Assembly: GCA_963807035.1 (NCBI GenBank)
Contig: CAWEAL010000003.1
Coordinates: 164,372-228,371, forward strand
Source of the DNA: an uncultured Chloroflexia bacterium
GTDB lineage: Bacteria; Chloroflexota; Limnocylindria; Limnocylindrales; CSP1-4
DNA length: 64,000 nt
Direction of reading: 5' to 3'
Shown in pieces: positions 8,300 through 33,965 of the stretch; the stretch's first letter is position 1; each line of letters starts with the position of its first letter. The notes beneath the pieces are model-generated. The model was not told where the DNA came from, ran no database searches, and saw only the letters and a program-made list of their open reading frames with translations. A program made the position numbers and the translations under genes.

Positions 8300-8313
8300 C
8301 CGCGCCCCTGGCG

Positions 8314-8319: not shown

Positions 8320-8325
8320 CTGGAC

Positions 8326-8523
8326 ATGTGCCGAAGCATCAAGACCCTCCGCCGACCCGAGACCAAGGCGACCGACGAAGAGGTTGCCGCGGCCGCACTC
8401 CAGTTCGTGCGGAAGGTGAGCGGCTATCGCGTCCCGTCCCGGAAGAACGCCGAGGCGTTCGACGGTGCGGTGGCCGACATTGCCGCCGCCTCCCGCCGCC
8501 TGCTCGACTCGCTCGCCTCCTGA
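8326..8523 (+). CDS. DUF2277-family small protein
   Basis: 65 aa. MCRSIKTLRRPETKATDEEVAAAALQFVRKVSG... matches the conserved N-terminus I recall for DUF2277 proteins. Confidence 0.7.
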   Translation: MCRSIKTLRRPETKATDEEVAAAALQFVRKVSGYRVPSRKNAEAFDGAVADIAAASRRLLDSLAS

Positions 8524-8541
8524 CCGGGGCTCCTGGATCGG

Positions 8542-9021: not shown

Positions 9022-9023
9022 CG

Positions 9024-9029
9024 TAGACT
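9024..9029 (+). promoter_or_regulatory. -10-like hexamer TAGACT, 6 nt upstream of GTG 9036 (leaderless-type start of fdhD)
   Basis: Hexamer and spacing read directly. Confidence 0.35.
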
Positions 9030-9035
9030 TCGAGC

Positions 9036-9866: not shown

Positions 9867-9880
9867 TTCGGGTCGGTCGA

Positions 9881-12768: not shown

Positions 12769-12776
12769 GGCCTGCC

Positions 12777-12782
12777 AGTGTA
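12777..12782 (-). promoter_or_regulatory. -10-like hexamer TACACT, 8 nt upstream of ATG 12768 (leaderless-type start)
   Basis: Minus-strand reading ...GATCGCTACACTGGCAGGCCATG. Confidence 0.3.
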
Positions 12783-12977
12783 GCGATCCGGGTCGAGATC
12801 GAGCCCCGCGGTCGAGTCCGGGATGTCCCCGCATTGCGGGCCGGCTCCACGAGATGCGCGATCGACGCCCGGGAGGCAATTCGGCAGCGTAGGCTAGCGA
12901 CGCGCACCGGGGGGAATCCCGATGGCGGCGCGGCCGAGCCTGCGCCCCTGGCTCCGGCAGCCCAGCGAGGAGTTGAG

Positions 12978-17868: not shown

Positions 17869-17954
17869 CTTGGAACCTCCTCGTCGGGAACGCGAACGCA
17901 GTTGATCATGGCACGTCGAGGGCGCGGTGGCGAGCCGGGCCGCTATCGGGCGTC

Positions 17955-19941: not shown

Positions 19942-20038
19942 GGGAGCGGAGGGGTCCCGGTGGGTCCCCCGGTCTTCAAAACCGGTGGCGCCACGCTCCG
20001 CGTGACGCGGTGGGTTCGACTCCCACGCGCTCCCGCCA
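19942..20038 (+). tRNA. selC: tRNA-Sec (anticodon UCA)
   Basis: ~97 nt. Anticodon arm CCGGU-CUUCAAA-ACCGG gives U33-UCA-A37. Long variable arm (..CCGCG UGA CGCGG..). T arm GUGGG-UUCGACU-CCCAC. 5' GGGAGCG pairs with 3' CGCUCCC, followed by G-CCA. Sits between selD and selA/selB. Confidence 0.85.
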
Positions 20039-20047
20039 CGAAACGTG

Positions 20048-20075
20048 TTCAGACGGGTTCAGACGGCTCAGACGG
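20048..20075 (+). repeat. three direct copies of (T)TCAGACGG at 10-bp period, 10 nt after the tRNA-Sec 3' end
   Basis: TTCAGACGG g TTCAGACGG c TCAGACGG read directly. Confidence 0.8.
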
Positions 20076-20252
20076 CGGCGCGACGTCCGAGGCGCCGCTT
20101 CGTGCCGTGCGGCCGGAGCCGGTTGCTACGCGGTCCCCCACCCCAACAGCACCAGTACGGCTGCCACCGCGAGCAGAACGGAGCCGGCGATCGCCACCGG
20201 CCACCATCTGCCGAGCCGGCCGCCCGGTCGGGTGGGCCCGAGCGGGCGATCC

Positions 20253-20474
20253 TCACTCTGGTGCGGTGGGCATCCGCTTCCGACACTCCGGGCAGAGATC
20301 GCGGCCGGCGTCGCCCCGCCGAAGGTCGCGCAGCTCGATCCGCAAGCCAGCCGGGCAATCGAAGAACGTGTGGTAGCCCAGCCCAGGCGTCACCCGCCCG
20401 TCGTGATACGGCCGCCGGGCCATCCACGCGACGACCCCTGTTGAGATCTCCTCGAGGTCTTCTGCCGTGTGCAT
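20253..20474 (-). CDS. hypothetical small protein (73 aa)
   Basis: Internal ATG of ORF 20253..20816 (MHTAEDLEEISTGVVAWMARRPYHDG...CPECRKRMPTAPE). No family recognised. A C-terminal TM-like segment is encoded just downstream in another frame. Confidence 0.3.
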   Translation of the reverse strand: MHTAEDLEEISTGVVAWMARRPYHDGRVTPGLGYHTFFDCPAGLRIELRDLRRGDAGRDLCPECRKRMPTAPE

Positions 20475-20701
20475 GGCCTCCCTGAAGGTTCCAGTGTGGC
20501 GCGGGAGCCGCGCTCGCGCAACGGATGCGCGGTCGCCGATACACCCGCTGGTTCTCGAAGCGTGGGCGGGCCGGGGGGCCGTTGGCCTCAGGCACATAGG
20601 TCGTATGGCTCTGTTCCCAGAGCTTGCGTGGCGGGACGATCCCGACCGGGTGGCCGACACCCGCCCCGCGATCGGCCGCCACGAGACTGAGGGACAGGCG
20701 G

Positions 20702-21194
20702 ATGCGCTCCTTGCCGGAGACGGCTCACGAACATCGCAACCGGATCGAGGCGCACGTGGACCGGCTGCCCGAGCTCGCCGAGATGATCGGACGAGTCTCC
20801 CCGGACGAGTTCGCATCGAGCTTCGAGGTGGAATGCGGCTTCATCGTGGGTGAGCTCGTACCGCACATGGAGGCGATCGAGAAATCGCTCTACAGGCAGC
20901 TTGAGCAACTCATGGGCAATCGGCATTCGATGACCCCGATGCGACGCGAGCATGACCAGCTGCGGGGGCTTTTCAAGTCGCTTTGCGAGTATCGCAGGGA
21001 GGCAGCCGGCGGGACCCTGGATCAGGCGGGGGAGGTCGGGCTTCGGCGGGTCCTCTATCGGCTGTACTCGATCCTGAAGGTCCACCTCGCCGAGGAGGAG
21101 CTCTACCTGCGAGTGCTCGAGGGACAACCTCTCGGCGGAGGCGAAGGACGTCCTGGCCCGGGGCATCGATCACGCGGTCGCCAAGCCGCTCTAG
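20702..21194 (+). pseudogene. hemerythrin (HHE cation-binding) domain protein, frameshifted near 21125
   Basis: MRSLPETAHEHRNRIEAHVDRL...HMEAIEKSLY...RHSMTPMRREHDQL...LKVHLAEEELYLRVLEG is in frame 2. The conserved tail NLSAEAKDVLARGIDHAVAKPL* is in frame 0. It is a paralog of the 21799..22294 gene. Confidence 0.7.
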
Positions 21195-21206
21195 ACCGAG
21201 CCGGCG

Positions 21207-21775
21207 CTACCCGGACCCGGCCGGGCCAAACCGATCTGGGTGGCCCCGATCCCTCGGCTTGGTCACGGCTTCGAGGTACCGCGCGTTGAACTCGGCGATC
21301 AGCCGAGCGCGCTCCTTCATCACGGCCGCCCATTCGTCGATGGCCAGCGTAGCCGGCGCTGGTCAGCTCGTAGTCGCGCCGCTGTGGCCCAGCCGCCTCG
21401 GCCGACCATGAGGAGGTGACCATGTCCGGCCTCCTCGAGGTCGCGCAGCGTCCGGTAGACCTGCCCGACATCGACCGGCCCACCGGTGATGCCCATCTCT
21501 TCGAGCTGGGCCGTGATCGCGTAGCCGTGGGTACGCCCGCCCGCCAGCAGGACGAGGACGAACGGCTCCATCCAGCGACGCCGGCTACCGAGCGGTGCCC
21601 ACCCTCGGTGGATCGGGGTCCCCGCCGAATCGCGATCGGAGCTGAGAGCGTCGTTGTTCGCGTCCGGCTGGGCGGCCGTGCCCGCGGGGTCGCCACCTAC
21701 TTCCCCTCCCGACCTTGGGTGATATCTCGACGCACTCATCTGCGTCTGGAGCATAGTCGCCTCTGGGAGGTGCAT
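21207..21775 (-). pseudogene. PadR-family transcriptional regulator, two frameshifts (about 21421 and 21345)
   Basis: WMEPFVLVLLAGGRTHGYAITAQLEEMGITGGPVDVGQVYRTLRDLEEAGH / VTSSWSAEAAGPQRRDYELTSAGYA / AIDEWAAVMKERARLIAEFNARYLEAV...* are read in three successive frames. Start uncertain. Confidence 0.7.
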
Positions 21776-21798
21776 CGAAGCGGGACCCGGGTCGGCGG

Positions 21799-22294
21799 TC
21801 AGGCCCCGGCGATCCCTGGGTGCTTCATCGCCGCCGCGAGCGCGTCGGCGGCTTCAGCCGACACGCCGTGGTCGACGATTCCTGCATAGAGCTCCTCCTC
21901 GGCGAGGTGGACCTTCAGGAGGGCGTACAGGCCGGAAGATGACCCGCCGCAGGGCGACGGCTTCGCCGGTCGAGAGCCGACCACCGTCCACGTCCTTCTG
22001 CATGCGCAGAAGGTCGTCGATCAGCTTGCGAATCTCCCCGTGCTCCCGTCGCATCGGGGTCATCGAGTGGCGGTTCTGGAGCATTCGCTCGAGCTCCGGG
22101 TAGAGGGTCCGCTCGGCCGCCTCCATGTGGGGGATCAGGAGCCCGGTCAGGAACGACGCGATCTCGTCCAACGGCGGTGCCAACTCCGCGACGGGCACGG
22201 AGCCGATCCGGTCGCCGAGGACCGGCATCCGGTCGACATGCCGCATCAGTCGCTCGTGGTGTTCGTGTGCCACGCCTTGCAGGGTCGGAATCAT
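21799..22294 (-). pseudogene. hemerythrin (HHE) domain protein, frameshifted near 21931
   Basis: MIPTLQGVAHEHHERLMRHVDRM...HMEAAERTLY...RHSMTPMRREHGEI...ALRRVIF in one frame, then LYALLKVHLAEEELYAGIVDHGVSAEAADALAAAMKH...* in the next. Confidence 0.7.
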
Positions 22295-22432
22295 CGAAGA
22301 CCTCCTCGGCGCCTGGCCGGCTTCCCATCCCGGACCTGTCTTCCAGCCGGGCATGTCGAGAACGTGGCACGGGCGTGGGCCCGGCCAAAGATCGAAACGC
22401 GCGTCGTCGCGGTCGGCGGCCGAATCGCGCCG

Positions 22433-23623
22433 CTACCCATGGTCGGCCCCCTTCGGCCCCTCCTGTGGAGCTTCGGCCAGCGCGAGGAAGAACAGCGCGA
22501 CGGGCCGGTACACGGCGTGAGCGAACTTCATGAATGGGGCGAGCAGGACGAGCTCCATTGCGACGGCGACATGGAACAGGAACACCCAGTAGCCCCAGCC
22601 GGGCGCGCTCGGGAGGTACAGGGCGAGCTCGATCGCGAAGCCGGTCACGCCGGTGATCCAGAGCAAGGCGAGGAACGTCCAGTCGGCGGCCGTCGAGTGG
22701 CGGACCGATCGCTCGTCGCCGCGCAGTCGCTGGAGGATGAGCATGCTCACGCCGTAGACGAGCAGCAAGCCGGCGACGGTGCCCAGCAGGCGGACGGGAT
22801 ACCAGACCGGGACTGGCGTACCGGTGGCCTTGATCCCGATCACGGCCAGGCCGTAGTCGAGGATCGTGGCGGCCAGCAACCCGAGGAAGCCCCACATCGT
22901 CGCGGCATGGAGGAACCAGCGACGGCGGAACCAGGGCAGCCGATCCGCGTCCGGGTCGCAGTCGGCGCGGTAGCGGCGTTGTCCGAGCGACTCGACGCCC
23001 AGGGCGCTCCACAGGGCGCCCAGGGATCGGCGCAGCGCGGGCCGGCTGCCGACGACGGAGCGCCAGCCGACGCCGCCTTCGCGGGCGAGCCGGCGAGCCA
23101 TCGTCACGACCCCGGCCAGGCCGGCCACGAACACGAGGACCATCACGCCGATCCCGATGTTGTGGATGAGCTCCTCGGGGATGAACCCGAAGATGTCGAG
23201 CGACTCGACGCTCTGGGCGCCGTGCGCTGCATACATGAACAGGGCGAAGAAGGCGGCCAGCGCCACCGCGATGAATGTTCCCAGGAACGGGCGGGTGTAC
23301 ATCGTCCGGGCGAGCCCCGTCCGGTCATAGCCGGCGATCGCGTAGCGGCGGGCGGCGGCCATGAACTCGCTCGGCTCGGCCTGGGTCGGGCACGTCTCGG
23401 AGCATTCGCCACAGGCGTAGCAGGTCCACAGCTCCTTGCTCGAGAGGAGCTTGTCGCGCAGGCCGACCTGGGCGTAGCGGATCATCCGCCGCGGGAACGT
23501 CGCGTCGTTCGTGACGAGCGGGCAGGTCGCCGTGCAGGTCCCGCAGCTGAAGCAGGCCGACACGTCTGCCGCGCCGAAGCGCTGCAGGTCGGTGAACAGG
23601 CCGGTGTCCACCTGGGTCGTCAT
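22433..23623 (-). CDS. QmoC-like membrane redox subunit (HdrC-like 2x[4Fe-4S] domain fused to an HdrE/DsrM/NarI-like cytochrome b membrane domain)
   Basis: 396 aa. CFSCGTCTATCP and CYACGECSETCP motifs, then about six TM helices with conserved His (FLHAATMWGF, FLFHVAVAMEL, KFAHAVYRP). Confidence 0.8.
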   Translation of the reverse strand: MTTQVDTGLFTDLQRFGAADVSACFSCGTCTATCPLVTNDATFPRRMIRYAQVGLRDKLLSSKELWTCYACGECSETCPTQAEPSEFMAAARRYAIAGYDRTGLARTMYTRPFLGTFIAVALAAFFALFMYAAHGAQSVESLDIFGFIPEELIHNIGIGVMVLVFVAGLAGVVTMARRLAREGGVGWRSVVGSRPALRRSLGALWSALGVESLGQRRYRADCDPDADRLPWFRRRWFLHAATMWGFLGLLAATILDYGLAVIGIKATGTPVPVWYPVRLLGTVAGLLLVYGVSMLILQRLRGDERSVRHSTAADWTFLALLWITGVTGFAIELALYLPSAPGWGYWVFLFHVAVAMELVLLAPFMKFAHAVYRPVALFFLALAEAPQEGPKGADHG

Positions 23624-23657
23624 CGGACCGATTCCGTGGGCTGGCTCGGGCTGGCAG

Positions 23658-23906
23658 TCATGCCGGCTCCTTCTCGATCGATTCGTAGCGGAAGTAGCCT
23701 TCGTCGGTCGCCCCCTTGACTTCCCGGAGGTGGCCGTAGCGACGCATGCCCATCACCCAGAAGACGACTTCGTGGGTCGGGCAGCCGAGGGCCGCGGCAA
23801 TCTCGGGCACGGTCCGTGGCCCGTCCCGGAGGATGGCCAGGATCTGGGCGCGCATGACCGGCTCCTCGCGGACGATCTCGCGGAGCTCGCGGTTCGGTCC
23901 GTTCAT
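23658..23906 (-). CDS. small winged-helix-like protein (82 aa) inside the hdr/qmo-like operon
   Basis: ATGA overlap with the hdrA-like stop. ...ILAILRDGPRTVPEIAAALGCPTHEVVFWVMGMRRYGHLRE... is HTH-like. Family not recognised. Confidence 0.5.
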   Translation of the reverse strand: MNGPNRELREIVREEPVMRAQILAILRDGPRTVPEIAAALGCPTHEVVFWVMGMRRYGHLREVKGATDEGYFRYESIEKEPA

Positions 23907-25645
23907 GCCACCGGGACCTCCAGCAGGCTGTCGATCATCGCGCTGATCTGGGCATCGGTGTAGCCACGCAGATCGATCGCGTTCTCGGGGCAGATCGGGA
24001 CGCACCCGCCGCATCCCTTGCAGCCGGTCTCGCTGATGATCGCCGTCGCCTTCGATCCGCCGGTGGCCATCTCGATCGCTCCGTACGGGCAGGCGTCGAG
24101 GCACGCGCCGCAGGCCGTGCAGGCATCCGGATCGACCGTGGCGACGAGCGGATCGAGCTCGGCGAAGCCCTTCTTCAGGATCACCGCACTCTGGGTGACG
24201 GCGGCCAGGCCCGAAGCGACGCTCTCGCTCGAGTTCTTCGGGCCCTGGCAGGCGCCCGCGATATAGACCCCATCGACGACGGTCTCGACCGGCCGGAGCT
24301 TGGGGTGGATCTCGTTGAAGAACCCGTCCGCTCCGAGCGGCAGCTTGAGGATCCCGATGAGCTCCTCGTTCTTGCGCGGGATCATGCCGGTGACGAGGAC
24401 GACCAGGTCGGCTGGAATGGCCAGCTCCTCGCCCCCGGTGAGTAGGTCGCGCACGGTGACGACCAGGCGCCCCGCGGCGTCGCGGGCCACGGCCGGAGGC
24501 GCGTCGTCGGCGAACTTCAGGTAGACCGAGCCGAGCTTGCGCGACTCGGTGTACATCAGCTCGAACTTGCCGTAGGTCCGCATGTCGCGGTACAGGTGGT
24601 ACTGGTGGACCTGGGCGTCCCGGGACGCCAGCTGGACCGACGTGGCGACCGTCGCCGCACAGCAGTAGCGCGAGCAATAGGTGTTCGCGCCCGGCTTGTC
24701 CGCCGCTTCGCGGCTGCCGACGCAATAGACGTAGACGACGTTGCGCACCGGCTTTCCGCCGTAGGTGAGCGGGCCCGTGGAACGGTCGACCAGCTCCTTG
24801 AACTCGGGCAGCGTGACGACGCCGTCGATCCCGTAGCCGTAGTCGCCCACCTCCGGCTGGTAGGTCTCGAACCCGGTCGCCACGATGATCGAGCCGACCT
24901 CGACCGAGAGCGTCTCGGGCGTGGGCCCGCTGATCCGGAGCCCGACCTGGTAGTTCCCGAAGCCGCCCGACTTGCTCACGAGCTCGGTCCCGGTGAAGAC
25001 GGTGATCGCCGGGCGCCGGCGGACCTGCTCGATCAGGGAGGCGATCAGTGCCCGGCCGTTCTTGCCGGTCGGATACATCTGGTCGAACCGGCCGACCCAG
25101 CCGCCGAGCTCGGCCTGGCGTTCGACCAGGAAGACGCCCAGCCCGATGTCGGCCAGCCCGATGGCCGCCCTCAGCCCGGCGACGCCGCCGCCGACCACGA
25201 GCGTCTTCTGGGTGGTCTCGACGACGAGCGGCTCGAGCGGATCCGACAGCCGGGTCCGGGCAATGCCGGCCTTGACCAGGCTGATCGCCTTGTTCGTCGT
25301 CCCTTGTGCATCGTCCGACTGGACCCAGGAGTCCTGCTCCCTGACGTTGACCTGGGTGTACTCGTACGGGTTGAGGCCGGCTCGCTTGGCCACGCCCCGG
25401 AAGGTGACCACGTGGAGCTTCGGCGAGCACGACGCGACGACGAGACCGTCGAGGTGCTGCTCCTCGATGTCGCGCTCCATCTCGCCCTGGCCCGAGTCCG
25501 CACAGGCAAACATCATCTGGCGGGCGACTACCACACCTTCCTCGGCCTGGGCCGCGGCGACGACCTGGTCGATGTCGACGTGGTCGGAGATGTTGCCGCC
25601 GCAGTGGCAGACGTAGACCCCGATCCGACGCTCGCGCCCGGTCAT
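23903..25645 (-). CDS. hdrA: HdrA-like FAD/Fe-S flavoprotein (QmoB-like without the MvhD domain)
   Basis: 580 aa. N-terminal IGVYVCHCGGNISDHVD Cys-cluster domain, dinucleotide fold TLVVGGGVAGLRAA, CSRYCC motif, and C-terminal ferredoxin CTACGACLDACP / CKGCGGCVPICP. Confidence 0.85.
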   Translation of the reverse strand: MTGRERRIGVYVCHCGGNISDHVDIDQVVAAAQAEEGVVVARQMMFACADSGQGEMERDIEEQHLDGLVVASCSPKLHVVTFRGVAKRAGLNPYEYTQVNVREQDSWVQSDDAQGTTNKAISLVKAGIARTRLSDPLEPLVVETTQKTLVVGGGVAGLRAAIGLADIGLGVFLVERQAELGGWVGRFDQMYPTGKNGRALIASLIEQVRRRPAITVFTGTELVSKSGGFGNYQVGLRISGPTPETLSVEVGSIIVATGFETYQPEVGDYGYGIDGVVTLPEFKELVDRSTGPLTYGGKPVRNVVYVYCVGSREAADKPGANTYCSRYCCAATVATSVQLASRDAQVHQYHLYRDMRTYGKFELMYTESRKLGSVYLKFADDAPPAVARDAAGRLVVTVRDLLTGGEELAIPADLVVLVTGMIPRKNEELIGILKLPLGADGFFNEIHPKLRPVETVVDGVYIAGACQGPKNSSESVASGLAAVTQSAVILKKGFAELDPLVATVDPDACTACGACLDACPYGAIEMATGGSKATAIISETGCKGCGGCVPICPENAIDLRGYTDAQISAMIDSLLEVPVA

Positions 25646-28353
25646 GCCGGCACCTTCGCCTGTTCCAGGTAGGCCGCCACCTGGGCCACGGTCGAGCCCG
25701 CGTGGAGGATCGAATCGGCGATGTCCTTGGCGCCCGAGGCGGCCCCGGCGACGTACACGCCGGGGATGCTGGTCTGGCCCGGATTGGCGTCCTCGTCGGT
25801 CTCCGCCACGTAGTGGAATTCGTCCTCGGCCAAGCCGCCCAGGGGGAAGAGCGCCTGGGCATCGCTGTTCGGTTGGACCCCGACGGCGAGCACGACCAGG
25901 TCATACTCGGCCTCGACCAGGCCGCCGCCGTTCTCGATGTCCTCGTAGCGCAGGACCAGGTCGCCGTTGTCCTTCTCGGTGATCTTGGCCACCCGGCCCT
26001 TGACGTAGTTGGCACCCATCGCCCGGGCCTGCTGGTAGAACTCCTCGTAGCGCTTGCCGGGTGCCCGGATGTCCATGTAGTGGACGGTCACGTCGGCGAT
26101 CGGCAGGGCGCCCATGATCAGCTGGTTCTGCTTGATCGAGTACATGCAGCAGAAGCGCGAGCAGAGCGGATTGCCGACCGTCTCGTCGCGCGAGCCCGTG
26201 CACAGCACGTAGGCGATCCGCTCGGGGACCTTGCCGTCGCCCGGCCGGAGGATCGTGTTGAACGGCCGGGTCGGGGCGAGCAGGCGGTCCATCTGCATCC
26301 CGGTGATCACGTTCTTGAACGCGCCATAGCCGTACTCCGGCTTGAGGTCGGCCGCGAAGAGCTTGAAGCCCGTGGCAACGACGACCGCGCCGACTTCGAT
26401 ATCGAGCACCTGGTCGCGGGCGTGGAGGTCGATGCAGCCGTCGACCGGGCAGGCGTCGACGCACTCGCCGCACTCCGAGCAGACGCCGCAGTCGAGGCAC
26501 AGGCCGGCGCCACGATGGGCCTCCGCTTCGGTCATCGGCAGCTCGACCTCGCGGAAGTCGGTGGGTGCGGCGCTGATCACCTCGCTCGGCTCGAGCGGGA
26601 CGGCCAGGCGGTACGCCTTCTGGCGTGCCAGGACCTGGGCCTTGTCGACGACCGGCAGGCGCCGGTCGAACCCGTCGAGCGCCTCGCCGTTGACCCAGCG
26701 ATCGATCATGTGCGCGGCACGCTGGCCCTGGCCGGTCGCCCGGGTGATGTCGGATGCGCCCGACACGACGTCGCCGGCCGCGAACAGCCAGGGAACGCCG
26801 CTCTGGAGCGTTTCGGGATCGACCGCAAGCGTGCCGCCCGGATTGGCCTGCACCTGCGCCGAGAACCCGCTCGTGTCGGGGGCCATCCCGATCGCGGTGA
26901 TGATCACCTCGCAGGCGATCTCGAAATCACTGCCCGGCACCGGCTCGGGCCGGCTCCGGCCGGACGCGTCCGGCCGGGCCGGCGCCATCCGGCTGCAGCG
27001 CAGGGCACGGGTCGCTCCGTGCCCGTCGTCGAGGACCTCGACCGGCGCGGCCTCGAAGACGAACCCGACCCCCTCCTGTTCGGTGTCATCGGCTTCGACA
27101 TGGTGGGCCGGCATCTCGGTCCGGGTGCGCCGGTAGACGACCGTGACGTCCTCCGCGCCCAAGCCGGCGGGCCGTCCGGGCCGTGTCCATGGCAACGTTC
27201 CCGCCGCCGATCACGACGACCCGCTTGCCCGACAGGTCGATGCCCTCACCGAGCTTGACCGCCCGCAGGAAGGCGACGCCGCTGAGCACGCCGTCGAGCT
27301 GCTCGCCGGGTACGCCGAGCTTCGTCGAGAGCGGGGTGCCGGTCGCCACCAGGACGGCGTCGTAGCCTTCGCCGTGGAGCGCCTCGAGGTCCTCCACCGG
27401 CGTGTTCGTGGCGATCTCGACGCCGAGCGCGGTGACATTCGCGATGTCCTGCTCGACGACCTCGGATGGCAGCCGGTAGGCCGGGATCGCGAGGCGCAGG
27501 AATCCGCCGGCCTTCGGCGCCGCGTCGAACATCCTGACCGCATAGCCCTTGCGGGCGAGCTGCCAGGCGGCAGTCAGGCCGGCCGGGCCGGTGCCAACGA
27601 TCGCCACCCGGTGTCCGTTGGGTTCGGGGATCGCGATGCCGGGACCATCGAACGCGTCGTAGTGGATGTCGGCGATGAACCGCTTGAGGCGGCGGATCGG
27701 AAGCGGTCCCTCGAGCGAGCCACGCGTGCATTCGAGCTCGCACGGCGCGTAGCAGGCCCGCCCGAGCGTACCGACGAGTGGCGTCGCGTCGAGGACGAGC
27801 TGGAACGCCTTCTCGTACTCGCCGCTCCGGATGAGCGACACGTAGCCGTGGGCCTGGATCCCGGCCGGGCAGGTGTACGAGCAGGGCGAGGATCCGGCCC
27901 GCTCGATGACGGCTTTCTTGGGCACGGCCTGGGGGAACGCGATGTAGGCCGCCCGGCGCTGCGATCATGTCGGCGTTGAACTGGTCGGGGACCGCCACGG
28001 TGCAGGCCGTCTCGCACTGCTGGCAGCCGGTGCAGGTCGCCTCGTTCGACGAATCGGGCCTTGCGGGTGACTTTCGCCTTGAATCGGCCTCCGGCACTGG
28101 GCGTGATGCCGTCGACTTCGCTGTAGGTGAGGGTGGTGACGTTCGGATGGTGGATCGAGGCGGCCATCTTCGGCGTCGAGATGCAGCTCGCGCAGTCGAG
28201 GGTCGGGAAGACCTTGCTGAGCAGGATCATCTTCCCGCCCACGCTCGCCTCCTTCTCGACGAGAAGGACGCGGTAGCCCATGTCGCCCAGCTTCAGGGCG
28301 GATTCCATGCCGCCGATGCCCGCCCCGACGACGAGGACGTCGTAGTCGGTCAT
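25642..28353 (-). pseudogene. giant HdrA-like flavoprotein with an inserted GltD/NfnB-like NAD(P)H-binding module ('HdrL'-like); three apparent frameshifts
   Basis: Domain continuity runs across four frames. (1) MTDYDVLVVGAGIGGMESALKL...KVFPTLDCASCISTPK...KARFVE. (2) EATCTGCQQCETACTVAVPDQFNADMIA. (3) RRAAYIAFPQAVPKKAVIERAGSSPCSYTCPAG...GRACYAPCELEC...VAIVGTGPAGLTAA...VVVIGGGNVAMDTARTARRLG. (4) AEDVTVVYRRTRTEMPAH...AAGDVV...CLDCGVCSECGECVDACP...CSRFCCMYS...GVYVAGAASG. Breaks at about 28044, 27959 and 27157. 4-nt overlaps with both neighbours. Confidence 0.75.
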
Positions 28354-28796
28354 GACGTCACCGCCGAGGGCCCCAGTTCGGCCAGGGCCTGGCCGAACTG
28401 CTGGACGTGCCTCGTGAACGGCTCGGCACAGACCGAGCAGATCGCCGCCATCTTGAGCCGCTGCGGCTGGTGGCCGCCCTGCTGCAGGAGGGCCTGGGCC
28501 TGGGCGACGATCCGCGATGCCCGTGCCGAGCAGTCAGGCAGGTAGGCGCACTCGTCGCCGTCGGATGCGATGAAGACGCCGTCGAAGCCACCCTCGATCG
28601 CCTGGAGGATCCAGCTCGGCCGGATCCCGCTCGTGCATGGCAGGCTGATGACGACGACGCCCGGTGAGTAGCTCATGTGCGAGCTGCCGGCCAGATCGAT
28701 GCCGGGGTCCGAGATGTTGTTCGTGGAGAAGACGAGGATCCGGGGGACGAATGTCCGGGCCTGATCTGCTGGCTTCAGCGGGGCGAGCGTCGTCAT
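28350..28796 (-). CDS. MvhD/FlpD-like (methyl-viologen-reducing hydrogenase delta subunit family) protein
   Basis: 148 aa. ILVFSTNNISDPGIDLAGSSHMSYSPGVVVISLPCTSGIRPSWILQAIEGGFDGVFIASDGDEC has the MvhD layout, but the usual N-terminal CCxxC is replaced. Confidence 0.65.
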   Translation of the reverse strand: MTTLAPLKPADQARTFVPRILVFSTNNISDPGIDLAGSSHMSYSPGVVVISLPCTSGIRPSWILQAIEGGFDGVFIASDGDECAYLPDCSARASRIVAQAQALLQQGGHQPQRLKMAAICSVCAEPFTRHVQQFGQALAELGPSAVTS

Positions 28797-28835
28797 CGAA
28801 GGGTGCTCCTTGGCCGGCCGGGGCAGCCCGGTGCC

Positions 28836-29111
28836 CTACTTCTGGCGCCGGACGAAGACCCGCTCGTAGCCTTCACCGGGCAGGTGTCCGAGGAAGACGT
28901 GGCCGACCTTTGTCGACCAGGCGCCGATGTCGCCCTTCGTAGCCGGATCGCTCGACCAGATCTCGATGACCTGGCCGATCTGGATCGTGCCCATTGCCTT
29001 CTTGGCCTCGAGGAGCGGTCCCGGGCAAGCGCTGCCGCGTGCGTCGACGACCTTGGCGCTCTCGAGGGCCATCAGGTCCGTGTCGCTGAGCGGGGTTGTG
29101 ATTGCGATCAT
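28836..29111 (-). CDS. tusA: TusA/SirA-family sulfur-carrier protein
   Basis: 91 aa from ATG 29111, preceded by GGAGAGGAG. VVDARGSACPGPLLEAKKAM contains the conserved CPxP persulfide-carrier motif. Confidence 0.8.
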   Translation of the reverse strand: MIAITTPLSDTDLMALESAKVVDARGSACPGPLLEAKKAMGTIQIGQVIEIWSSDPATKGDIGAWSTKVGHVFLGHLPGEGYERVFVRRQK

Positions 29112-29206
29112 TGGATTGATCTCCTCTCCGATCGCCGAGCCGCGTCCTGCGCGGCCGGCGAGCTGTGGGTCAGTGGACGTAGGCATTTCCCGAGACTGCC
29201 AGGCAC

Positions 29207-29614
29207 CTAGATGAAGACCGGCGAGCCATCGCCCATGTCGAGGAAGAACGTGGCGATCCCGCACACGTCGTCGACGATCGGATCGAGCTCGCCGGGAACG
29301 ATCCCGAGGAACTTCATCGAGGCCGAGCAGGCACGGATCCGGACGTCGCCGAGCTCCTTGGCCTGCCGGAAGGTCTCAGCCCACGGCAGCGATCCGGCCG
29401 GCGCCGTCGCCATCGGCGATCCAGCTTGGGCCGCGTCGAAGGCGAGCCCATGGTCCTTCGCGATGCTCTCCTTGCGAAATGCGTCGAGCGCCCAGAACTG
29501 CAGCAGGACGTTCACCGGCCGGCCCATCGCCGAGGCGCCGGCCGCGATCGTGGCCGCCGCATGGAGCTTGTCATCAGTACCGGAAAAGAGGACGACGGAG
29601 ATTGTTTCGCTCAT
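29207..29614 (-). CDS. DsrE/DsrF-like (DrsE_2-type) sulfur-relay family protein
   Basis: 135 aa. ISVVLFSGTDDKLHAAATIAAGASAMG ... IRACSASMKFLG pattern. ATGA overlap with the upstream arsR stop. Confidence 0.7.
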   Translation of the reverse strand: MSETISVVLFSGTDDKLHAAATIAAGASAMGRPVNVLLQFWALDAFRKESIAKDHGLAFDAAQAGSPMATAPAGSLPWAETFRQAKELGDVRIRACSASMKFLGIVPGELDPIVDDVCGIATFFLDMGDGSPVFI

Positions 29615-30045
29615 GTCGGACGTACCTCGGTAGGGGAGTAGCCGGCCAGGGCCGGTTCCTTGGCGGCGGCCGCAAGATCACCCAGCCTCGACAGCCGGCG
29701 GACGAGAACCTCGCGCATCAGCTCGCAGGCTCGGAGGACTTGGGGATCCGTCAACTGATAGCTGACCGATCGCCCTTCGCGAAGAGGCTCGACCAGACCG
29801 ACGGCCCGCATTGCGCCCAGGTGCTGCGACGCCGCAGCCTGACTGATGCCCAGCTCGCCTGCGACCTGATTGGCTCCGCACGGCCGGACGCCCAGGAGAT
29901 GGAGGATCTGCAGGCGCTGGGCGCTCGCAAGCGATCGCAGCAGCGAGGCCTGAAGCTCGTCGATATCGTGCGTCGCGCTTGCCATGGCCGGCTCCATCGC
30001 AGGGGCTTGATCCCCAGCCCGAGATGCCAGGTATCCCTGACTCAT
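29611..30045 (-). CDS. ArsR/SmtB-family transcriptional regulator (first gene of the hdr/qmo-like operon)
   Basis: LQILHLLGVRPCGANQVAGELGISQAAASQHLGAMRAVGLV is a wHTH. The start could instead be the internal MEPAM. Confidence 0.8.
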   Translation of the reverse strand: MSQGYLASRAGDQAPAMEPAMASATHDIDELQASLLRSLASAQRLQILHLLGVRPCGANQVAGELGISQAAASQHLGAMRAVGLVEPLREGRSVSYQLTDPQVLRACELMREVLVRRLSRLGDLAAAAKEPALAGYSPTEVRPT

Positions 30046-30061
30046 ATGATCTCTGAGCAGT

Positions 30062-30082
30062 TATATGCCATCGACACATATA
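30062..30082. promoter_or_regulatory. candidate operator: TATATG n9 CATATA inverted repeat in an AT-richer divergent arsR/osmC region
   Basis: Read directly. The only markedly AT-rich stretch in this part of the window. Confidence 0.25.
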
Positions 30083-30280
30083 CGCCATGGGCCGTTCGTC
30101 ACGCGACGACGGGCCAGGTGGACCGTTGCTGGTCGCGATCTATCCAGGACAGCCAGGAGGGCCCCGGCGGGGATCGAACGAGATGTCGCCCTGTGGCCCG
30201 CGCAGTTCGGGCCGGACGGCTCTTCAGCTAGCGCCGGAACGGGGCCCAGGCTGGCAGCCAGACGCACGGGAGGAACTCGC

Positions 30281-30790
30281 ATGGGAGTACGCACGGCGTC
30301 CGCGAGGCTCGACGGCGACGGGATGCGGCTCGTCGCGCTGACCGGCAGTAATCACTCGATCGTGATGGACAGCGCCGAGGGCGACTCGGGACCTCGGCCG
30401 GCCGAGCTCCTGCTGGTCGCCCAGGCCGGCTGCACCGCAATGGACGTCATCTCGATCCTGCGCAAGATGCGGCAGGCGGTGAGCGGCTACGAAGTCCGCG
30501 TCTCTGGCGAGCAGCGCGACGACCCACACCCGCACGTCTTCGAACGGATCCGGGTCGTCCACGTCGTCGAGGGGAACGTCGAGGTCGAGGCGGTCCGTCG
30601 CGCGATCGAGCTCTCCGCGACCCGCTACTGCACGGTCACGGGGAACCTCGCTTCGGGCGTCGCCGAGATCCGACACGAGTACCAGGTCCGCGACTCAGCT
30701 GGAGAGGAGCACCGAGGCGAGGTTGTCGTCACGGGCCCCGGTGACAGCCCCGACCACCTCGGCTTACGGCCCGCCTCAGCGGTCGTTTGA
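30281..30790 (+). CDS. OsmC/Ohr-family peroxiredoxin-like protein
   Basis: 169 aa from ATG 30281 after GGGAGGA. PAELLLVAQAGCTAMDV ... ATRYCTV carries the two conserved Cys of OsmC. Confidence 0.8.
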   Translation: MGVRTASARLDGDGMRLVALTGSNHSIVMDSAEGDSGPRPAELLLVAQAGCTAMDVISILRKMRQAVSGYEVRVSGEQRDDPHPHVFERIRVVHVVEGNVEVEAVRRAIELSATRYCTVTGNLASGVAEIRHEYQVRDSAGEEHRGEVVVTGPGDSPDHLGLRPASAVV

Positions 30791-30877
30791 GCTTCGGGCG
30801 ATGTATCCATCGAGGCTCGCATCTCGTCCCCTGAGTAGGAACGGGTGAGCGCCCGTCAGGAAGATGAGGACACCGAG

Positions 30878-31090
30878 ATGAAGTTCAGTACCAACGAAGC
30901 ACCGATCGATCGCGTCATCCGGATCGTGCTGGGGATCGCCCTCGCTGCGATTGCTCTCACGGGCTCCGTCAGCGCACCGTGGCTGTACGTCGTGTGGGCG
31001 TTGGCGGCAATTGCGCTCGTGACGGGCGTCATCGGCTTCTGCGCGCTGTATGCCCTGTTCGGCGTCAGCACGAAGTCGACAGCCGGGTGA
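30878..31090 (+). CDS. DUF2892 (YgaP-C-like) small membrane protein
   Basis: NEAPIDRVIRIVLGIALAAIALTG...LAAIALVTGVIGFCALYALFGVST is a typical DUF2892 two-helix pattern with the conserved Cys. Confidence 0.6.
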   Translation: MKFSTNEAPIDRVIRIVLGIALAAIALTGSVSAPWLYVVWALAAIALVTGVIGFCALYALFGVSTKSTAG

Positions 31091-31153
31091 GCAGCTCCAG
31101 GCGCGGATGAGGTGAAGGTGGCGCGCTATGGGGTGGCCGAGAAGGTCGAGCCG

Positions 31154-31936
31154 ATGACCAACGGCGACGAGTTCGCCGCGGAGCTCGTGCGCGCGCTGCC
31201 TTCCCTCGTCCGCCTCGCGAGCCGGCTCGTCCGCGACCCGGACCAGGCCGAGGATTGCGCGCAGGAGACGATCGTCGGAGCATGGCGCCGGCAGGACCAG
31301 CTTCGTGACCCGGCGGCCCTCGCCGGCTGGCTCCGGCGAAGTCTTGTGAACCGGATCATCGACCGTTCCCGGGCCCACCACGACGAGCTCGACATTGATG
31401 CAGTCGAGGCCGATTGGCGCGATGACCGCTATTCCGTCGCCCCGGATCGGGTCCTCGAACGAGCCGAGTTGCGGGATGCGCTCGAGGATGCGCTCGCGCG
31501 GCTGCCGGTGATCTATCGCGTCCCAGTCGTGCTCCACGATGCCGTCGGTTGGACGGCGGTCGAGATCGCGAGCGCGATGGATGCTGGATTGCCCGCAACC
31601 AAACAGCGCCTGCGACGGGGGCGGATGATGCTGGTGAGCGCGCTCGGCGAGGATGACGAGCGTCGCCAGGCGAGCCTCGCCCAGCCCCTCCGCTGCTGGC
31701 GGGCTCGTCGGCACATTTCTTCATACCTCGACGACGAGCTTGACCAGACGACGCGCACGGCGGTCGAGGCGCACCTCAAGACCTGCCCGACGTGTCCGCC
31801 TCTGTACGCGAGTCTCGTTGGTGTCATGGCAACGCTTGGCGGCTTACGCGACCCCGACACCGTGGTTGAGGAGGCGATGGCCGGGCGGATCCGCCAGCAT
31901 CTCGACCGCCAGGCCGGTCGACGAGGCGAGTCCTGA
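31154..31936 (+). CDS. ECF sigma-70 factor fused to a C-terminal zf-HC2 (ZAS) anti-sigma-like domain
   Basis: Region 2 (DPDQAEDCAQETIVGAWRR) and region 4 (VLHDAVGWTAVEIASAMDAGLPATKQRLRRGR) are followed in the same ORF by CWRARRHISSYLDDELDQTTRTAVEAHLKTCPTCP (H-x3-C-x2-C). Confidence 0.8.
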   Translation: MTNGDEFAAELVRALPSLVRLASRLVRDPDQAEDCAQETIVGAWRRQDQLRDPAALAGWLRRSLVNRIIDRSRAHHDELDIDAVEADWRDDRYSVAPDRVLERAELRDALEDALARLPVIYRVPVVLHDAVGWTAVEIASAMDAGLPATKQRLRRGRMMLVSALGEDDERRQASLAQPLRCWRARRHISSYLDDELDQTTRTAVEAHLKTCPTCPPLYASLVGVMATLGGLRDPDTVVEEAMAGRIRQHLDRQAGRRGES

Positions 31937-32127
31937 GGAGCTCGGACGATTGTTCTTCGCGGCCGAGCCGCCGGTCGCATTGTGAGCGAGCGATCCACAT
32001 CGCCCCAGTGGACGCGACGCAGCAGACGGCCCGCTGGCGATCACCCCGGAATCGACATCCGGCACCCTGAGGCGATGCCTTTTGGCCCTCCGACATCTCG
32101 ACCTGGAATGACACACTTCAACCTGAG

Positions 32128-32475
32128 ATGACCATCCACCAGCGCGCTCTGCCCGTCCTGCCTGAACTCCGCCTCGACCTGCTGACGCCGGAGGTCGAGG
32201 ACGTGGTAGCCGCTGCGGCCCTCGTCGGCGACCGGACTCGGGCCGGGATCCTGCGGATCCTCTCCGACGGCCCCCATTGCGTCTGCGAAATGGCGGCCGC
32301 GCTGGGCGAGCGCCAGAACAACGTCTCGAACCACCTGGCGCGGCTTCGTGAGGCCGGAGTCGTCCGTGCGAGCCGGCACCGGGTCGATGCCCGCTGGGTC
32401 TACTACGAGCGCGACGAAGCGGCCTGCTTGGGACTTCTGGCCGAGCTCAGGAGCCTCCTGGAGCCAAGACGATGA
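32128..32475 (+). CDS. ArsR/SmtB-family transcriptional regulator
   Basis: 115 aa. RILSDGPHCVCEMAAALGERQNNVSNHLARLREAGVV is a wHTH with a CVC metal/metalloid-type site. Confidence 0.8.
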   Translation: MTIHQRALPVLPELRLDLLTPEVEDVVAAAALVGDRTRAGILRILSDGPHCVCEMAAALGERQNNVSNHLARLREAGVVRASRHRVDARWVYYERDEAACLGLLAELRSLLEPRR

Positions 32476-33524
32476 CCACGATCAACCTGCACCCAGCCCG
32501 CCGGTTCCAGCTGCCGATCAAAGGCGTCGTCGGCGCCTCGGTCGTGGCCTGGCTGGTCGCCTGGTTCAGCGAAGCGCCGCTCTCAGACTGGTTGACGTTC
32601 ACGGTTCTTGGTCTCGAGCGGGGATCCCAGGTTGGCGAGGCGATCTCGTTCTTCCTGCTCGACCTGCCCAAGGTGCTGCTGCTCCTCCTCGGCATCATCA
32701 CGGTCGTGACCCTGATCCGCGGCTTCTTCCCGCCGGAGCGCGTCCGGGCAGCGCTCGCCGGCCGGGGGCTCATGACCGGGACGGTGGCCGCGGCCTCGTT
32801 TGGGATCGTGACCCCGTTCTGCTCGTGCTCCGCCGTACCCCTGTTCATCGGGTTCGTGGAGGCCGGGATCCCGCTCGGCGTGACCTTTGCGTTCCTGATC
32901 AGCTCACCGATGGTCAACGAAGTGGCGCTGGTCCTGCTGTGGGGCCTGTTTGGACCCGGCATCGCGCTCGTCTACATGGCCGCTGGGCTGGCCGTGGCGA
33001 TCGTCGGCGGGCTCCTGATCGGAAGGCTGAGAATGGAGCGCTACGTCGAGGCGTACGTGTGGGGTCTCCAGGGCAAGGGCGGCGCGGTCGTTGCGATCCA
33101 GCTCACGTGGGCCGACCGGATCCACGACGCCTGGGCGTACACGAAGGATCTGGTTCGGCGGATCCTGCCCTACCTGCTGATTGGGATCGGGATCGGGGCG
33201 CTCATCCACGGCTACGCACCGACCGAGCTCGTGGCCGCCATCGGGGGACGTTCCAACCCGTTCGCGGTACCGATCGTCATTCTCATCGCCCTGCCGCTCT
33301 ACTCGAACGCGGCGGGCACGATCCCGATCGTCCAGGCCCTCCTGGGCAAGGGGATGCCGCTGGGGACCACGCTCGCGTTCATGATGGCGATCACCGCGAT
33401 CAGCCTGCCCGAGTTCATCATCCTGCGGCGGGTCATCCGCTGGCCGCTCATCGCTGTCTTCGCCGCGGTCGTGACGGTCGGGATCCTGATGATCGGCTAC
33501 CTCTTCAACTTCCTCATCTACTGA
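32472..33524 (+). CDS. permease of the DUF318 / ArsP-like family (TPFCSCS motif)
   Basis: 350 aa, multi-TM. GIVTPFCSCSAVPLFIGFVEAGIPLG is the hallmark motif. ATGA overlap with arsR. Confidence 0.8.
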   Translation: MTTINLHPARRFQLPIKGVVGASVVAWLVAWFSEAPLSDWLTFTVLGLERGSQVGEAISFFLLDLPKVLLLLLGIITVVTLIRGFFPPERVRAALAGRGLMTGTVAAASFGIVTPFCSCSAVPLFIGFVEAGIPLGVTFAFLISSPMVNEVALVLLWGLFGPGIALVYMAAGLAVAIVGGLLIGRLRMERYVEAYVWGLQGKGGAVVAIQLTWADRIHDAWAYTKDLVRRILPYLLIGIGIGALIHGYAPTELVAAIGGRSNPFAVPIVILIALPLYSNAAGTIPIVQALLGKGMPLGTTLAFMMAITAISLPEFIILRRVIRWPLIAVFAAVVTVGILMIGYLFNFLIY

Positions 33525-33567
33525 CATCACGCCCTGGTGCGCCCGGGGCACTGGAGGCAACGCTCCC

Positions 33568-33804
33568 ATGAAGAAGATCGAGGTCCTCGGACCCGGTTGC
33601 AGCAACTGCCAGCGGCTCGAGGCGAATGCCCGGGCGGCCGTCGCCCTGACCGGCGTCGATGCCGAGATCGTCAAGGTCACCGACTACGGCCGGATCATGG
33701 CCTACGGGATCATGAGCACCCCCGGGCTCGTGATCGACGGCACGGTCATGAGCTACGGCAGGATCCCCTCCGCCGCCGACATCGCCGGATGGCTGAGCGC
33801 GTGA
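33568..33804 (+). CDS. thioredoxin-fold 'redox-active disulfide protein 2' family small protein
   Basis: 78 aa. MKKIEVLGPGCSNCQRLE...STPGLVIDG is the typical partner of ArsR/permease pairs. Confidence 0.75.
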   Translation: MKKIEVLGPGCSNCQRLEANARAAVALTGVDAEIVKVTDYGRIMAYGIMSTPGLVIDGTVMSYGRIPSAADIAGWLSA

Positions 33805-33907
33805 TCCGTCGCAGGAGTGGCTAGGGGCATCAGCCGACGATGAGCGGCCCGGGACCCACGGATTGCCCTAGCATGGACCGTCGCGGACCCCGGGCTGCAA
33901 CGTCAAC

Positions 33908-33965
33908 GCCGGTGCCGCCACGCTCCGCGTGACGCGGTGGGTGCGGCTCCCACGCGCTCCCGCCA
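33908..33965 (+). repeat. tRNA-Sec 3'-half remnant (direct repeat of 19981..20038; att-like or decayed selC copy)
   Basis: 54/58 identical to the variable arm, T arm and acceptor 3' strand plus CCA of selC. The T-loop is mutated (GGGTGCGGCTCCC vs GGGTTCGACTCCC). No matching 5' acceptor strand lies upstream. Confidence 0.75.

Follow-up and report, generated by a model that had tools for sequence, protein, structure and literature searches.

A Qmo- and Hdr-like gene cluster with TusA and DsrE sulfur carriers beside selC in a Limnocylindria genome

What does a redox operon built from Qmo- and Hdr-like subunits do when it carries its own sulfur-carrier genes, and does a position among selenium genes tell its substrate? 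Both questions are raised by the eight-gene cluster at positions 22433-30045 of a 64,000-nucleotide stretch (hereafter the window) of contig CAWEAL010000003.1, assembly GCA_963807035.1, from an uncultured Chloroflexia bacterium. The window has a G+C content of ~72%, and its best protein matches come from metagenome-assembled genomes (MAGs) of Candidatus Limnocylindrales/Limnocylindria within the Chloroflexota. An earlier note, made from the sequence alone, had described the cluster as an unusual operon coupled to a sulfur relay and had considered a selenium substrate. From its gene content we consider it somewhat probable that the cluster encodes a type-II-Qmo-like membrane complex which acts on sulfane sulfur bound to TusA and DsrE and is linked to menaquinone and to nicotinamide adenine dinucleotide (phosphate), NAD(P)(H).

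Gene content and subunits of the cluster

The minus strand holds eight reading frames between 22433 and 30045, all in the same direction. From 5' to 3' they are as follows.

29611-30045, minus strand: arsR; longest open reading frame 144 aa; Pfam HTH_5; NCBIfam HTH_metalloreg at 64 bits (cutoff 55)
29207-29614, minus strand: DsrE2B-type sulfur-carrier-like gene; 135 aa; Pfam DrsE_2
28836-29111, minus strand: tusA; 91 aa; Cys-Pro-Gly-Pro motif; Pfam TusA at 62 bits
28350-28796, minus strand: mvhD, a free-standing [2Fe-2S] electron-transfer subunit; 148 aa; Pfam FlpD at 96 bits over the whole profile
25642-28353, minus strand: hdrL, an HdrA/GltD fusion and QmoA-like HdrA paralogue; 902 aa once restored; Pyr_redox_2, Fer4_20 and HdrA domains
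23903-25645, minus strand: hdrA; 580 aa; N-terminal Cys, flavin adenine dinucleotide (FAD) and C-terminal 2x[4Fe-4S] ferredoxin domains
23658-23906, minus strand: small winged-helix gene; 82 aa; conserved in the cassette
22433-23623, minus strand: qmoC-like gene; 396 aa; HdrC-like 2x[4Fe-4S] domain and six-helix dihaem-b-type membrane domain

This is the gene order that the earlier note had read. Hidden Markov model searches, which it had proposed, were run for each open reading frame, and the Pfam and NCBIfam profiles upheld every assignment. Direct reading of the sequence confirmed the ATGA overlaps of start and stop codons at 29611/14, 28350/53, 25642/45 and 23903/06, and with them the view of a single operon-like unit. 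All modules of QmoABC are indeed present in rearranged form, with MvhD free and a GltD/NfnB-like module within the QmoA-like subunit. The HdrA/GltD fusion gene stood as to its domains; as one continuous open reading frame it did not, and three +1 frame changes are needed. No apr, sat, dsrAB or hdrBC domain was found among the window open reading frames scanned with Pfam, again in agreement with the note. A consensus scan for promoters and terminators returned no promoter and one terminator, which is at chance level. The true start of arsR is probably 29985, giving a product of 124 aa, by length match with relatives (120-124 aa).

Residues 5-162 and 619-897 of HdrL align with the QmoA-like protein of other lineages, and the insertion boundaries fall near 162 and 619. 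On this alignment the Limnocylindria HdrL is a QmoA-like subunit that carries an insertion of ~455 aa inside its inserted ferredoxin domain. The insert is an NfnB/GltD-like module for FAD, NAD(P)H and 2x[4Fe-4S], the nearest solved relatives being StnA, NfnA, NfnB and GltD. More than 120 clusters hold intact HdrL homologues of ~902 aa at 74-92% identity. An AlphaFold2 model of HdrL built on a 15-sequence alignment, with a mean predicted local distance difference test (pLDDT) of 58.7 and a predicted template-modelling score of 0.43, was too poor for a fold search and was left unused.

Conservation of cofactor residues was assessed over 63-85 orthologues, depending on the protein. In HdrL the Cys sets are conserved in the core, in the ferredoxin part and in the Fer4_20 part. 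HdrA, whose best Protein Data Bank (PDB) match is the HdrA chain 5odc_A (E 5e-121) and which reaches 485 bits against NCBIfam HdrA2, keeps all its cluster cysteines (N-terminal, central and C-terminal sets) in 79 orthologues. MvhD has five conserved Cys. The QmoC-like protein covers positions 5-360 of the 360 of the NCBIfam qmoC model at 200 bits, against a cutoff of 300, and its HdrC domain matches PDB 8rvv_C. Eight Cys and His154, His239, His351 and His369 are conserved in it, and the four His sit in six hydrophobic segments. The whole complex would hold more than 10 Fe-S clusters.

The small winged-helix protein belongs to a family of 3082 clusters annotated only as hypothetical. JGI labels for this family are often wrong ('DprA/Smf' or 'PTS IIA'). 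Its AlphaFold2 model (pLDDT 82.6) shows an H-H-H-hairpin fold, that is, a minimal three-helix winged helix, and the Foldseek matches of the model to SmtB, MarR and Zalpha at TM 0.6-0.68 indicate generic winged-helix likeness only. A profile search against PDB sequences gave nothing significant, and no Cys is conserved among the orthologues. The gene lies between hdrA and qmoC in every context examined, from bacteria to an Asgard archaeon. Because of this fixed slot and of the ATGA start overlap with hdrA, the protein is probably an accessory subunit of the complex. DsrD offers an analogy, as a winged-helix protein of ~80 aa in a sulfur-enzyme operon that acts on the enzyme DsrAB and not on DNA (PMC8794893). 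The cassette protein is similar to this DsrAB activator in size and fold, and its role is drawn by analogy; no sequence relationship is detectable, and its Pfam scan gave no DsrD match.

The carriers are typical of sulfur relays. The window DsrE matches PDB 2QS7 over its full length (E 8e-22), and 2QS7 is SSO1126, the DsrE2B of Sulfolobus solfataricus (Liu et al., PMC4175335). Cys96 of this DsrE2B-type protein is invariant in 66 orthologues and Cys29 of TusA in 83; the closest structure match of TusA is an archaeal TusA. In the closest relatives a second DsrE gene (111-121 aa, Pfam DsrE, DsrE3-like) lies between the DrsE_2 gene and tusA. Its product has two invariant Cys in an LVCGPC motif, matches 3MC3, a DsrE3A, weakly, and is homologous to the DsrE that closes the cassette in other phyla. 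The window retains a scar in its place.

29179..29203, no strand: deletion scar; ~360 bp of the second DsrE gene absent near 29188, by blastn and MAFFT against the related loci L001, L004 and L006

Among the 84 related loci described below, 27 gave no match to the second DsrE; some of these contigs end within the cluster and others are free of the gene despite full flanks. Loss of the second DsrE gene is not unique to the window.

The regulator is less specific. One Cys of ArsR (C107 of the long open reading frame) is invariant in 63 orthologues, and the other Cys of the pair is present in 37%. The PDB matches are to the ArsR family in general, with SqrR one of many. Unlike the persulfide-sensing repressors BigR and SqrR, this ArsR does not have the conserved alpha2/alpha5 Cys pair, and it scores 33 bits against the BigR model (cutoff 155). 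An AT-rich palindrome upstream is a candidate operator.

30064..30084, no strand: TATATG-N9-CATATA, candidate ArsR operator, ~80 nt upstream of arsR

The pattern has this single match in the 64-kb window, with 0 expected, and relatives have a comparable AT-rich imperfect palindrome upstream of arsR. An ArsR-family repressor probably controls the operon through it.

Distribution of the cassette and state of this copy

At least 368 loci in species-representative genomes encode HdrL relatives. We analysed 84 loci, made up of the best 80 of these (69-89% identity, nearly all labelled Chloroflexota/Limnocylindria) and four metagenome contigs. The gene order is constant over the 84 loci, and contig ends explain part of the missing counts. 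The number of loci with each gene is given here.

Redox genes, tusA and winged-helix gene, of 84 loci: hdrL 84, tusA 83, mvhD 83, hdrA 79, winged-helix gene 78, qmoC 75
Regulator, DsrE genes and downstream neighbours, of 84 loci: arsR 68, DrsE_2 gene 65, hemerythrin 59, second DsrE 57, PadR 57

Rhodanese (23 loci), OsmC (21) and an ArsP-type permease (12) also recur nearby. In so far as the families of the recurrent neighbours are identified, none was recognised as an enzyme of sulfur oxidation or reduction.

The QmoC-like protein is found more widely, and an exhaustive search gave 202 clusters at 50% identity with E <= 1e-30. The distant operon consists of tusA, mvhD, a QmoA-like HdrA paralogue of 442-456 aa with no GltD module, HdrA of 640-686 aa, a small protein of 93-105 aa, the QmoC-like gene and then usually dsrE. 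Six such loci come from other phyla.

L131 and L132, contigs of 2.66 and 4.87 Mb: GltD insert missing from the cassette
L133, Planctomycetes MAG: cassette without the GltD insert; arsR-dsrE upstream as well
L134, Heimdallarchaeaceae MAG: GltD insert missing from the cassette; locus truncated by the contig end
L135 and L136, winged-helix type named in Thermodesulfobacteriota MAGs: GltD insert missing from the cassette; a divergent sigma-54 activator replaces arsR

Across these loci the identity to the window proteins is 55-60% for TusA, 41-52% for QmoC, 38-44% for HdrA, 29-42% for the winged-helix protein and ~29% for MvhD. No apr, sat or dsrAB gene is present in the flanks shown of L131-L136. 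Judged from these gene orders, the core cassette tusA-mvhD-qmoA-like-hdrA-wHTH-qmoC-dsrE is widespread and older than the Limnocylindria, and the window cluster is not a one-off but the form that a broad, uncharacterised cassette takes in this lineage. To call it unusual, as the earlier note did, was too strong, given a cluster that is colinear in more than 80 Limnocylindria species genomes and a cassette that crosses phyla. The survey of gene neighbourhoods which the note had suggested bore out the co-occurrence with sulfur carriers (tusA in 83/84 loci) and not that with selenium genes (1/84).

A few loci deserve separate mention. A DsrC-family gene lies at 13810-14127 of L131, ~3.7 kb downstream of the cassette, which may hint that in some lineages the cassette is tied to carriers of the DsrC type. 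A cluster of the Limnocylindria type (69-72% HdrL identity) is also found in L061, L068 and L082, which are binned as Steroidobacteraceae, Bacillota or Gemmatimonadaceae, owing either to lateral transfer or to mis-binning; in L068 the arrangement of the carriers is divergent.

The copy in the window is disrupted. The translation of hdrL over 25642-28353 makes sense only with three +1 frame changes. Alignment against L001, L004 and L006 revealed three extra single bases at 28047, 27960 and 27160, and a frame scan by G+C periodicity gave the same three switches. Four further insertions lie in three downstream neighbours, as indicated by frame changes between tblastn high-scoring pairs and by DNA alignments to relatives.

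21802-22294, minus strand: hemerythrin; single-base insertion at 21933
21219-21781, minus strand: PadR; single-base insertions at 21425 and 21347
20702-21191, plus strand: second hemerythrin; single-base insertion at 21124

Read literally, this copy of the operon is dead. The earlier note had set a dead operon against its own interpretation; on the face of the sequence that is what this copy is, and the face of the sequence may be an artefact. We hold it quite possible, if somewhat less than probable, that the copy of this genome is a decaying remnant from which no functional complex is made, a reading that concerns this copy and not the family. In its favour, the three insertions truncate the hdrL translation after ~100 native residues, hdrL is uninterrupted in all 84 related loci, the downstream insertions and the ~360-bp deletion that takes out the dsrE gene affect the surroundings as well, and the operon sits on an acquired block. 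Against it stands the kind of damage. All events are single-base insertions, none of them in a homopolymer, with no small deletion or nonsense mutation. Once the three bases are removed, hdrL returns to 2709 nt, or exactly 902 codons, free of stops and of the same length as in relatives, and its ratio of nonsynonymous to synonymous substitution rates against L001 is 0.105, as low as in intact neighbours (0.06-0.21) and a sign of purifying selection. Moreover, a secreted protein with three internal repeats (12747-15861, plus strand), an unrelated gene, carries a +1 shift near 15722, ~45 codons before its end. As this shift lies beyond the inserted block, single-base insertions occur elsewhere than in the operon as well. 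The FdhA reading frame over-runs the end seen in relatives (~15955) by ~100 codons, which suggests another indel near the 3' end of its gene. By contrast, no frame change interrupts selD, selA, selB or the genes up to ~43 kb. Because of the insertion-only pattern and the lack of relaxed selection, sequence error, such as a local sequencing or assembly error, appears at least as likely as decay.

Some further observations concern the insertions themselves. One more single base is inserted at 20698, just beyond the hemerythrin-PadR-hemerythrin genes, in comparison with four relatives. The nine insertion sites share no common motif in methylation or homopolymer context. Programmed frameshifting in hdrL was rejected since the extra bases are absent from all 84 relatives, and the TGA at 27574-27576 was rejected as a selenocysteine (Sec) codon since it falls within the out-of-frame stretch made by the first insertion.

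Proposed function and the selC neighbourhood

In the proposed mechanism all redox proteins of the cassette would form one membrane complex. The QmoC-like subunit would exchange electrons with the menaquinone pool through two [4Fe-4S] clusters and two haem-b-type sites, and HdrA, the QmoA-like HdrL and the free MvhD would form a cytoplasmic flavin/Fe-S module. The DsrE proteins might load TusA, which would present a Cys persulfide or related bound sulfur as the electron acceptor or donor. The two-electron step would be TusA-S-SH + 2e- + 2H+ <-> TusA-SH + H2S, or involve a related carrier-bound species. The NfnB-like insert would add a site for NAD(P)(H) in the Limnocylindria only. The reaction would be coupled to the menaquinone/menaquinol and NAD(P)+/NAD(P)H pairs, and this coupling may use flavin-based bifurcation or confurcation. 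The NAD(P)H- and/or menaquinone-linked function on carrier-bound sulfur that the earlier note had put forward is a reasonable reading.

The reaction could run in two directions. The carrier persulfide could be reduced by NAD(P)H and/or menaquinol, or sulfide could be oxidised to the carrier persulfide with the electrons split between menaquinone and NAD(P)+. Textbook potentials are ~-320 mV for NAD(P)H, ~-270 mV for sulfane sulfur/sulfide and ~-74 mV for menaquinone. Both directions are feasible, and we choose neither. A bolder proposal, tentative and rather doubtful as yet, is that the cassette represents a new and phylogenetically broad family of HdrA-based membrane enzymes in bacteria and Asgard archaea. 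These would be carrier-persulfide:quinone oxidoreductases using flavin-based bifurcation or confurcation, with TusA-bound sulfane sulfur and not a small molecule as the substrate, and the Limnocylindria would have recruited the NfnB-like module.

The main rival takes the complex as a generic energy module, an NAD(P)H:menaquinone (possibly ferredoxin) oxidoreductase that perhaps bifurcates like FixABCX/EtfABCX. Its substrate would not be sulfur, and TusA and DsrE would be co-regulated helpers in sensing or in the supply of sulfur for Fe-S clusters and cofactors. The complex alone does have a donor site (the NfnB-like NAD(P)H module), a quinone site (QmoC) and a ferredoxin-type exit (the C-terminal 2x[4Fe-4S] domain of HdrA), and it holds no sulfur-specific catalytic domain. 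This rival is weakened because the cassettes outside the Limnocylindria do without the NAD(P)H module and yet keep TusA first and DsrE last. TusA is also among the best-conserved members across phyla, and tusA lies directly before mvhD in 83/84 loci. We regard the generic module as unlikely.

The place of the cluster in the genome had suggested another substrate. As the earlier note had seen, the cluster is flanked by selC (19942-20038) and selA (from 33976). A repeat search showed what these flanks are.

19942..20038, plus strand: selC (tRNA-Sec); ARAGORN, and Rfam tRNA-Sec at 71 bits; left end of the inserted block
33903..33965, plus strand: displaced tRNA-Sec 3' copy; 63 nt, 92% identical; right end of the 13.9-kb block

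The 63-nt direct repeat (19976-20038 and 33903-33965; blastn-short E 5e-21) has a spacing of 13,927 nt, and 10 nt separate the end of the displaced copy from the start of selA. The Rfam scan gave tRNA-Sec as its sole match. The G+C content of the block is 0.67-0.70, against 0.74 and 0.76 in the adjoining 2-kb windows. The block holds, in order, the hemerythrin-PadR-hemerythrin genes, the eight-gene cluster, OsmC, a YgaP-like gene, a fusion of an extracytoplasmic function (ECF) sigma factor with an anti-sigma factor, and ArsR-ArsP permease-thioredoxin-like genes. Most of it is syntenic with L001 at 80-88% nucleotide identity, and the flanks of L001 have no sel gene. A protein scan with SelA fetched 46 metagenome loci with SelA relatives, 26 of which hold tRNA-Sec. 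In 21 of these 26, selC and the SelA match share a strand, with selC 10-70 nt upstream, mostly in the order selD-selC-selA-selB. None of the 46 loci has genes of the cluster. An exact-pattern metagenome scan for the selC/selA junction gave no match.

By these comparisons the 13.9-kb block is inserted into the 3' end of selC and splits an ancestral selD-(hydrolase)-selC-selA-selB order, which we deduce because selC directly precedes selA in the relatives. The mechanism could be a lost integrase or recombination. The block resembles tRNA-targeted genomic islands in its site at a 3' tRNA end, its direct repeat, its lower G+C content and the uninterrupted site in relatives. It differs from them in that no integrase or excisionase was found, and in its cargo, a chromosomal-type redox/sulfur block that is for the most part syntenic with one other Limnocylindria genome. 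selC is a classical insertion site of genomic islands in enterobacteria, and it appears to serve as one in this Chloroflexota lineage too. Since the placement between selC and selA comes from the insertion, it says nothing on the substrate, and a neighbourhood beside a tRNA gene should be taken with caution in annotation, not as evidence of functional linkage.

That TusA and DsrE carry a perselenide, which the complex reduces for selenophosphate or Sec synthesis, is thus highly improbable, for the nearness to selC, selA, selD, selB and a Sec formate dehydrogenase was made by the insertion, and the evidence from other genomes agrees. Of the 84 loci with the cluster, 83 are free of sel genes and of tRNA-Sec within ~10 kb, and the flanks of the six cross-phylum cassettes show no sel gene. 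The lone exception, L071, is from a more distant Limnocylindria MAG; in its region 7011-15674 the cluster lies ~2.5 kb upstream of tRNA-Sec on the same strand and a few kb from selA. A single association with selC in 84 loci is compatible with chance. The YedF connection on which the earlier note drew also fails, as TusA scores 22 bits against the YedF model TIGR03527 (cutoff 110), with the TusA-like part alone covered. The DsrE/TusA set instead matches the sulfur carriers that flank sHdr clusters. The local Sec machinery evidently serves a formate dehydrogenase with an in-frame TGA.

~15925-17874, minus strand: formate dehydrogenase alpha subunit; in-frame TGA at 17605-17607 after '...IDSCNRT'
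9036-9866: FdhD, near the Sec formate dehydrogenase
10870-12879: NuoE/F-like fusion, near the Sec formate dehydrogenase

Side observations on the block and on related sel loci are as follows. Right after tRNA-Sec, 20045-20077 holds three tandem units of ~10 nt (GTTCAGACGG GTTCAGACGG CTCAGACGG), and the next ~600 bp have no coding signal and no relative in L001. The genes at 30281-33804 code for OsmC, a small YgaP-like membrane protein, a protein that joins an ECF sigma factor to a zf-HC2 anti-sigma domain, and ArsR-ArsP permease-thioredoxin_3. Compared with L001, the ArsR-ArsP-thioredoxin segment is inverted and the block lacks two methyltransferase genes. In L071 a DAO-family oxidoreductase lies between selC and selA. 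tRNA-Sec is 0.7-7.9 kb from selA in L101 (2-98 and 8001), L086, L103 and L087/L088, which may be other insertions at selC. L101, with the distance of 7.9 kb, was considered as a second island and rejected, as it has no clear repeat.

Returning to the Qmo-like complex acting on carrier-bound sulfur, several points weigh against it and against the history given for its locus. What weakens it most is that none of the subunits carries a recognised sulfur catalytic site, be it an HdrB CCG domain, a sirohaem or an AprA-type site, so the proposal does not explain how a persulfide would be reduced or oxidised. The role of TusA and DsrE could also lie in regulation or in the supply of cofactors, and not in that of a substrate. 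As to the regulator, its likeness to ArsR/SmtB is generic, and the two-Cys pair of BigR/SqrR is missing. In this genome hdrL is frame-shifted three times and the ancestral DsrE of the cassette is deleted, and the copy may do nothing. For the insertion, no integrase, excisionase or other mobility gene was found among the open reading frames of 20039-33900, and L071, from another lineage, also has the cluster beside selC, though on its 5' side.

If the proposed complex is real, it would give the abundant and mostly uncultured Limnocylindria a route to handle reactive sulfur, joined to NAD(P)H and the quinone pool; under the bolder proposal soil Chloroflexota would gain a direct link between NAD(P)H, sulfane sulfur and menaquinone. 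Qmo and Hdr complexes are central to anaerobic sulfur energy metabolism, although understanding is limited to the Apr-linked Qmo and the methanogen Hdr. Type II Qmo has been noted in organisms without Apr and Dsr, and the cassette suggests a TusA/DsrE relay as its partner.

Comparison with known systems

Literature searches, made by gene combination and by 'Qmo-like' wording, brought up no account of such a set, and the earlier note's statement that no characterised system has such a composition holds for the literature searched. Its HdrA/GltD fusion is no novelty, as such a fusion beside mvhD has already been named HdrL (PMC2702500).

QmoABC ties a cytoplasmic sulfur reaction to the menaquinone pool (PMC3333476). 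Like the canonical 'type I' QmoABC of sulfate reducers and Chlorobi, the cluster has two HdrA-related FAD/Fe-S subunits (the HdrL core and HdrA) with an MvhD module, and a QmoC in which an HdrC-like 2x[4Fe-4S] domain is fused to a dihaem membrane domain. Unlike it, the cluster has no adjoining aprBA or sat in the window or in the relatives examined, whose neighbour families are not all identified. Its MvhD is a separate gene here and in relatives instead of the C-terminus of QmoB, its QmoB-like subunit is a full HdrA with the N-terminal domain, and its QmoC falls below the equivalog cutoff. There is an extra winged-helix gene, and the TusA and DsrE genes are integral to the operon. In type II Qmo, QmoAB are described as nearer to typical HdrA than to bacterial QmoAB, and QmoC as of its own type (Neukirchen et al. 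2023, PMC10504309); the QmoABC of Ammonifex degensii and Vulcanisaeta moutnovskia belong to it. By this description, type II Qmo is the published category that the cassette most resembles; the main text of that paper makes no mention of a TusA/DsrE/winged-helix linkage or of an NfnB-like insertion.

In the sHdr system DsrE3 proteins pass sulfur to TusA, which delivers it to the sHdr proteins and is co-purified with them (PMC11094781). The cluster shares with it the ArsR-family regulator and the DsrE2/DsrE3-type and TusA carriers beside an HdrA-containing complex (PMC11094781, PMC4175335). It differs in that HdrB1, HdrB2, HdrC1 and HdrC2 (CCG domains) are found neither in the operon nor in the gene tables of L001 and L004, and QmoC, MvhD and a second HdrA paralogue are present instead. 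The genes for LbpA (the lipoate-binding protein) and its maturation are absent from the gene tables of L001 and L004, and none was noted among the recurrent neighbours, not all of whose families are identified.

The pairing of HdrL with MvhD is known from genomes and proteomes of Desulfobacterota (PMC2702500, PMC5947623). The window gene is likewise a fusion of HdrA with a glutamate-synthase-small-subunit module, with NAD(P)H sites and an adjacent mvhD (PMC2702500, PMC5947623, PMC12142623). The Desulfobacterota modules, in contrast, adjoin hdrABC, dsrABC or fdh in strict anaerobes, and some of them contain Sec, whereas the window fusion accompanies HdrA, QmoC and TusA/DsrE in the Chloroflexota and has no Sec.

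The insert of HdrL has the Fer4_20 domain and the FAD/NAD(P)-binding fold of NfnB, GltD and DsrL, with its best matches to StnA (9bov, 8oh5), NfnA (9n5u), NfnI-L (5jca) and GltD. Unlike in those proteins, the module is inserted within an HdrA-type protein and is not a separate subunit. DsrL is an NfnB-like link between NAD(H) and the dissimilatory sulfur enzymes, and the NfnI of P. furiosus was first isolated as an NADPH:polysulfide 'sulfide dehydrogenase'.

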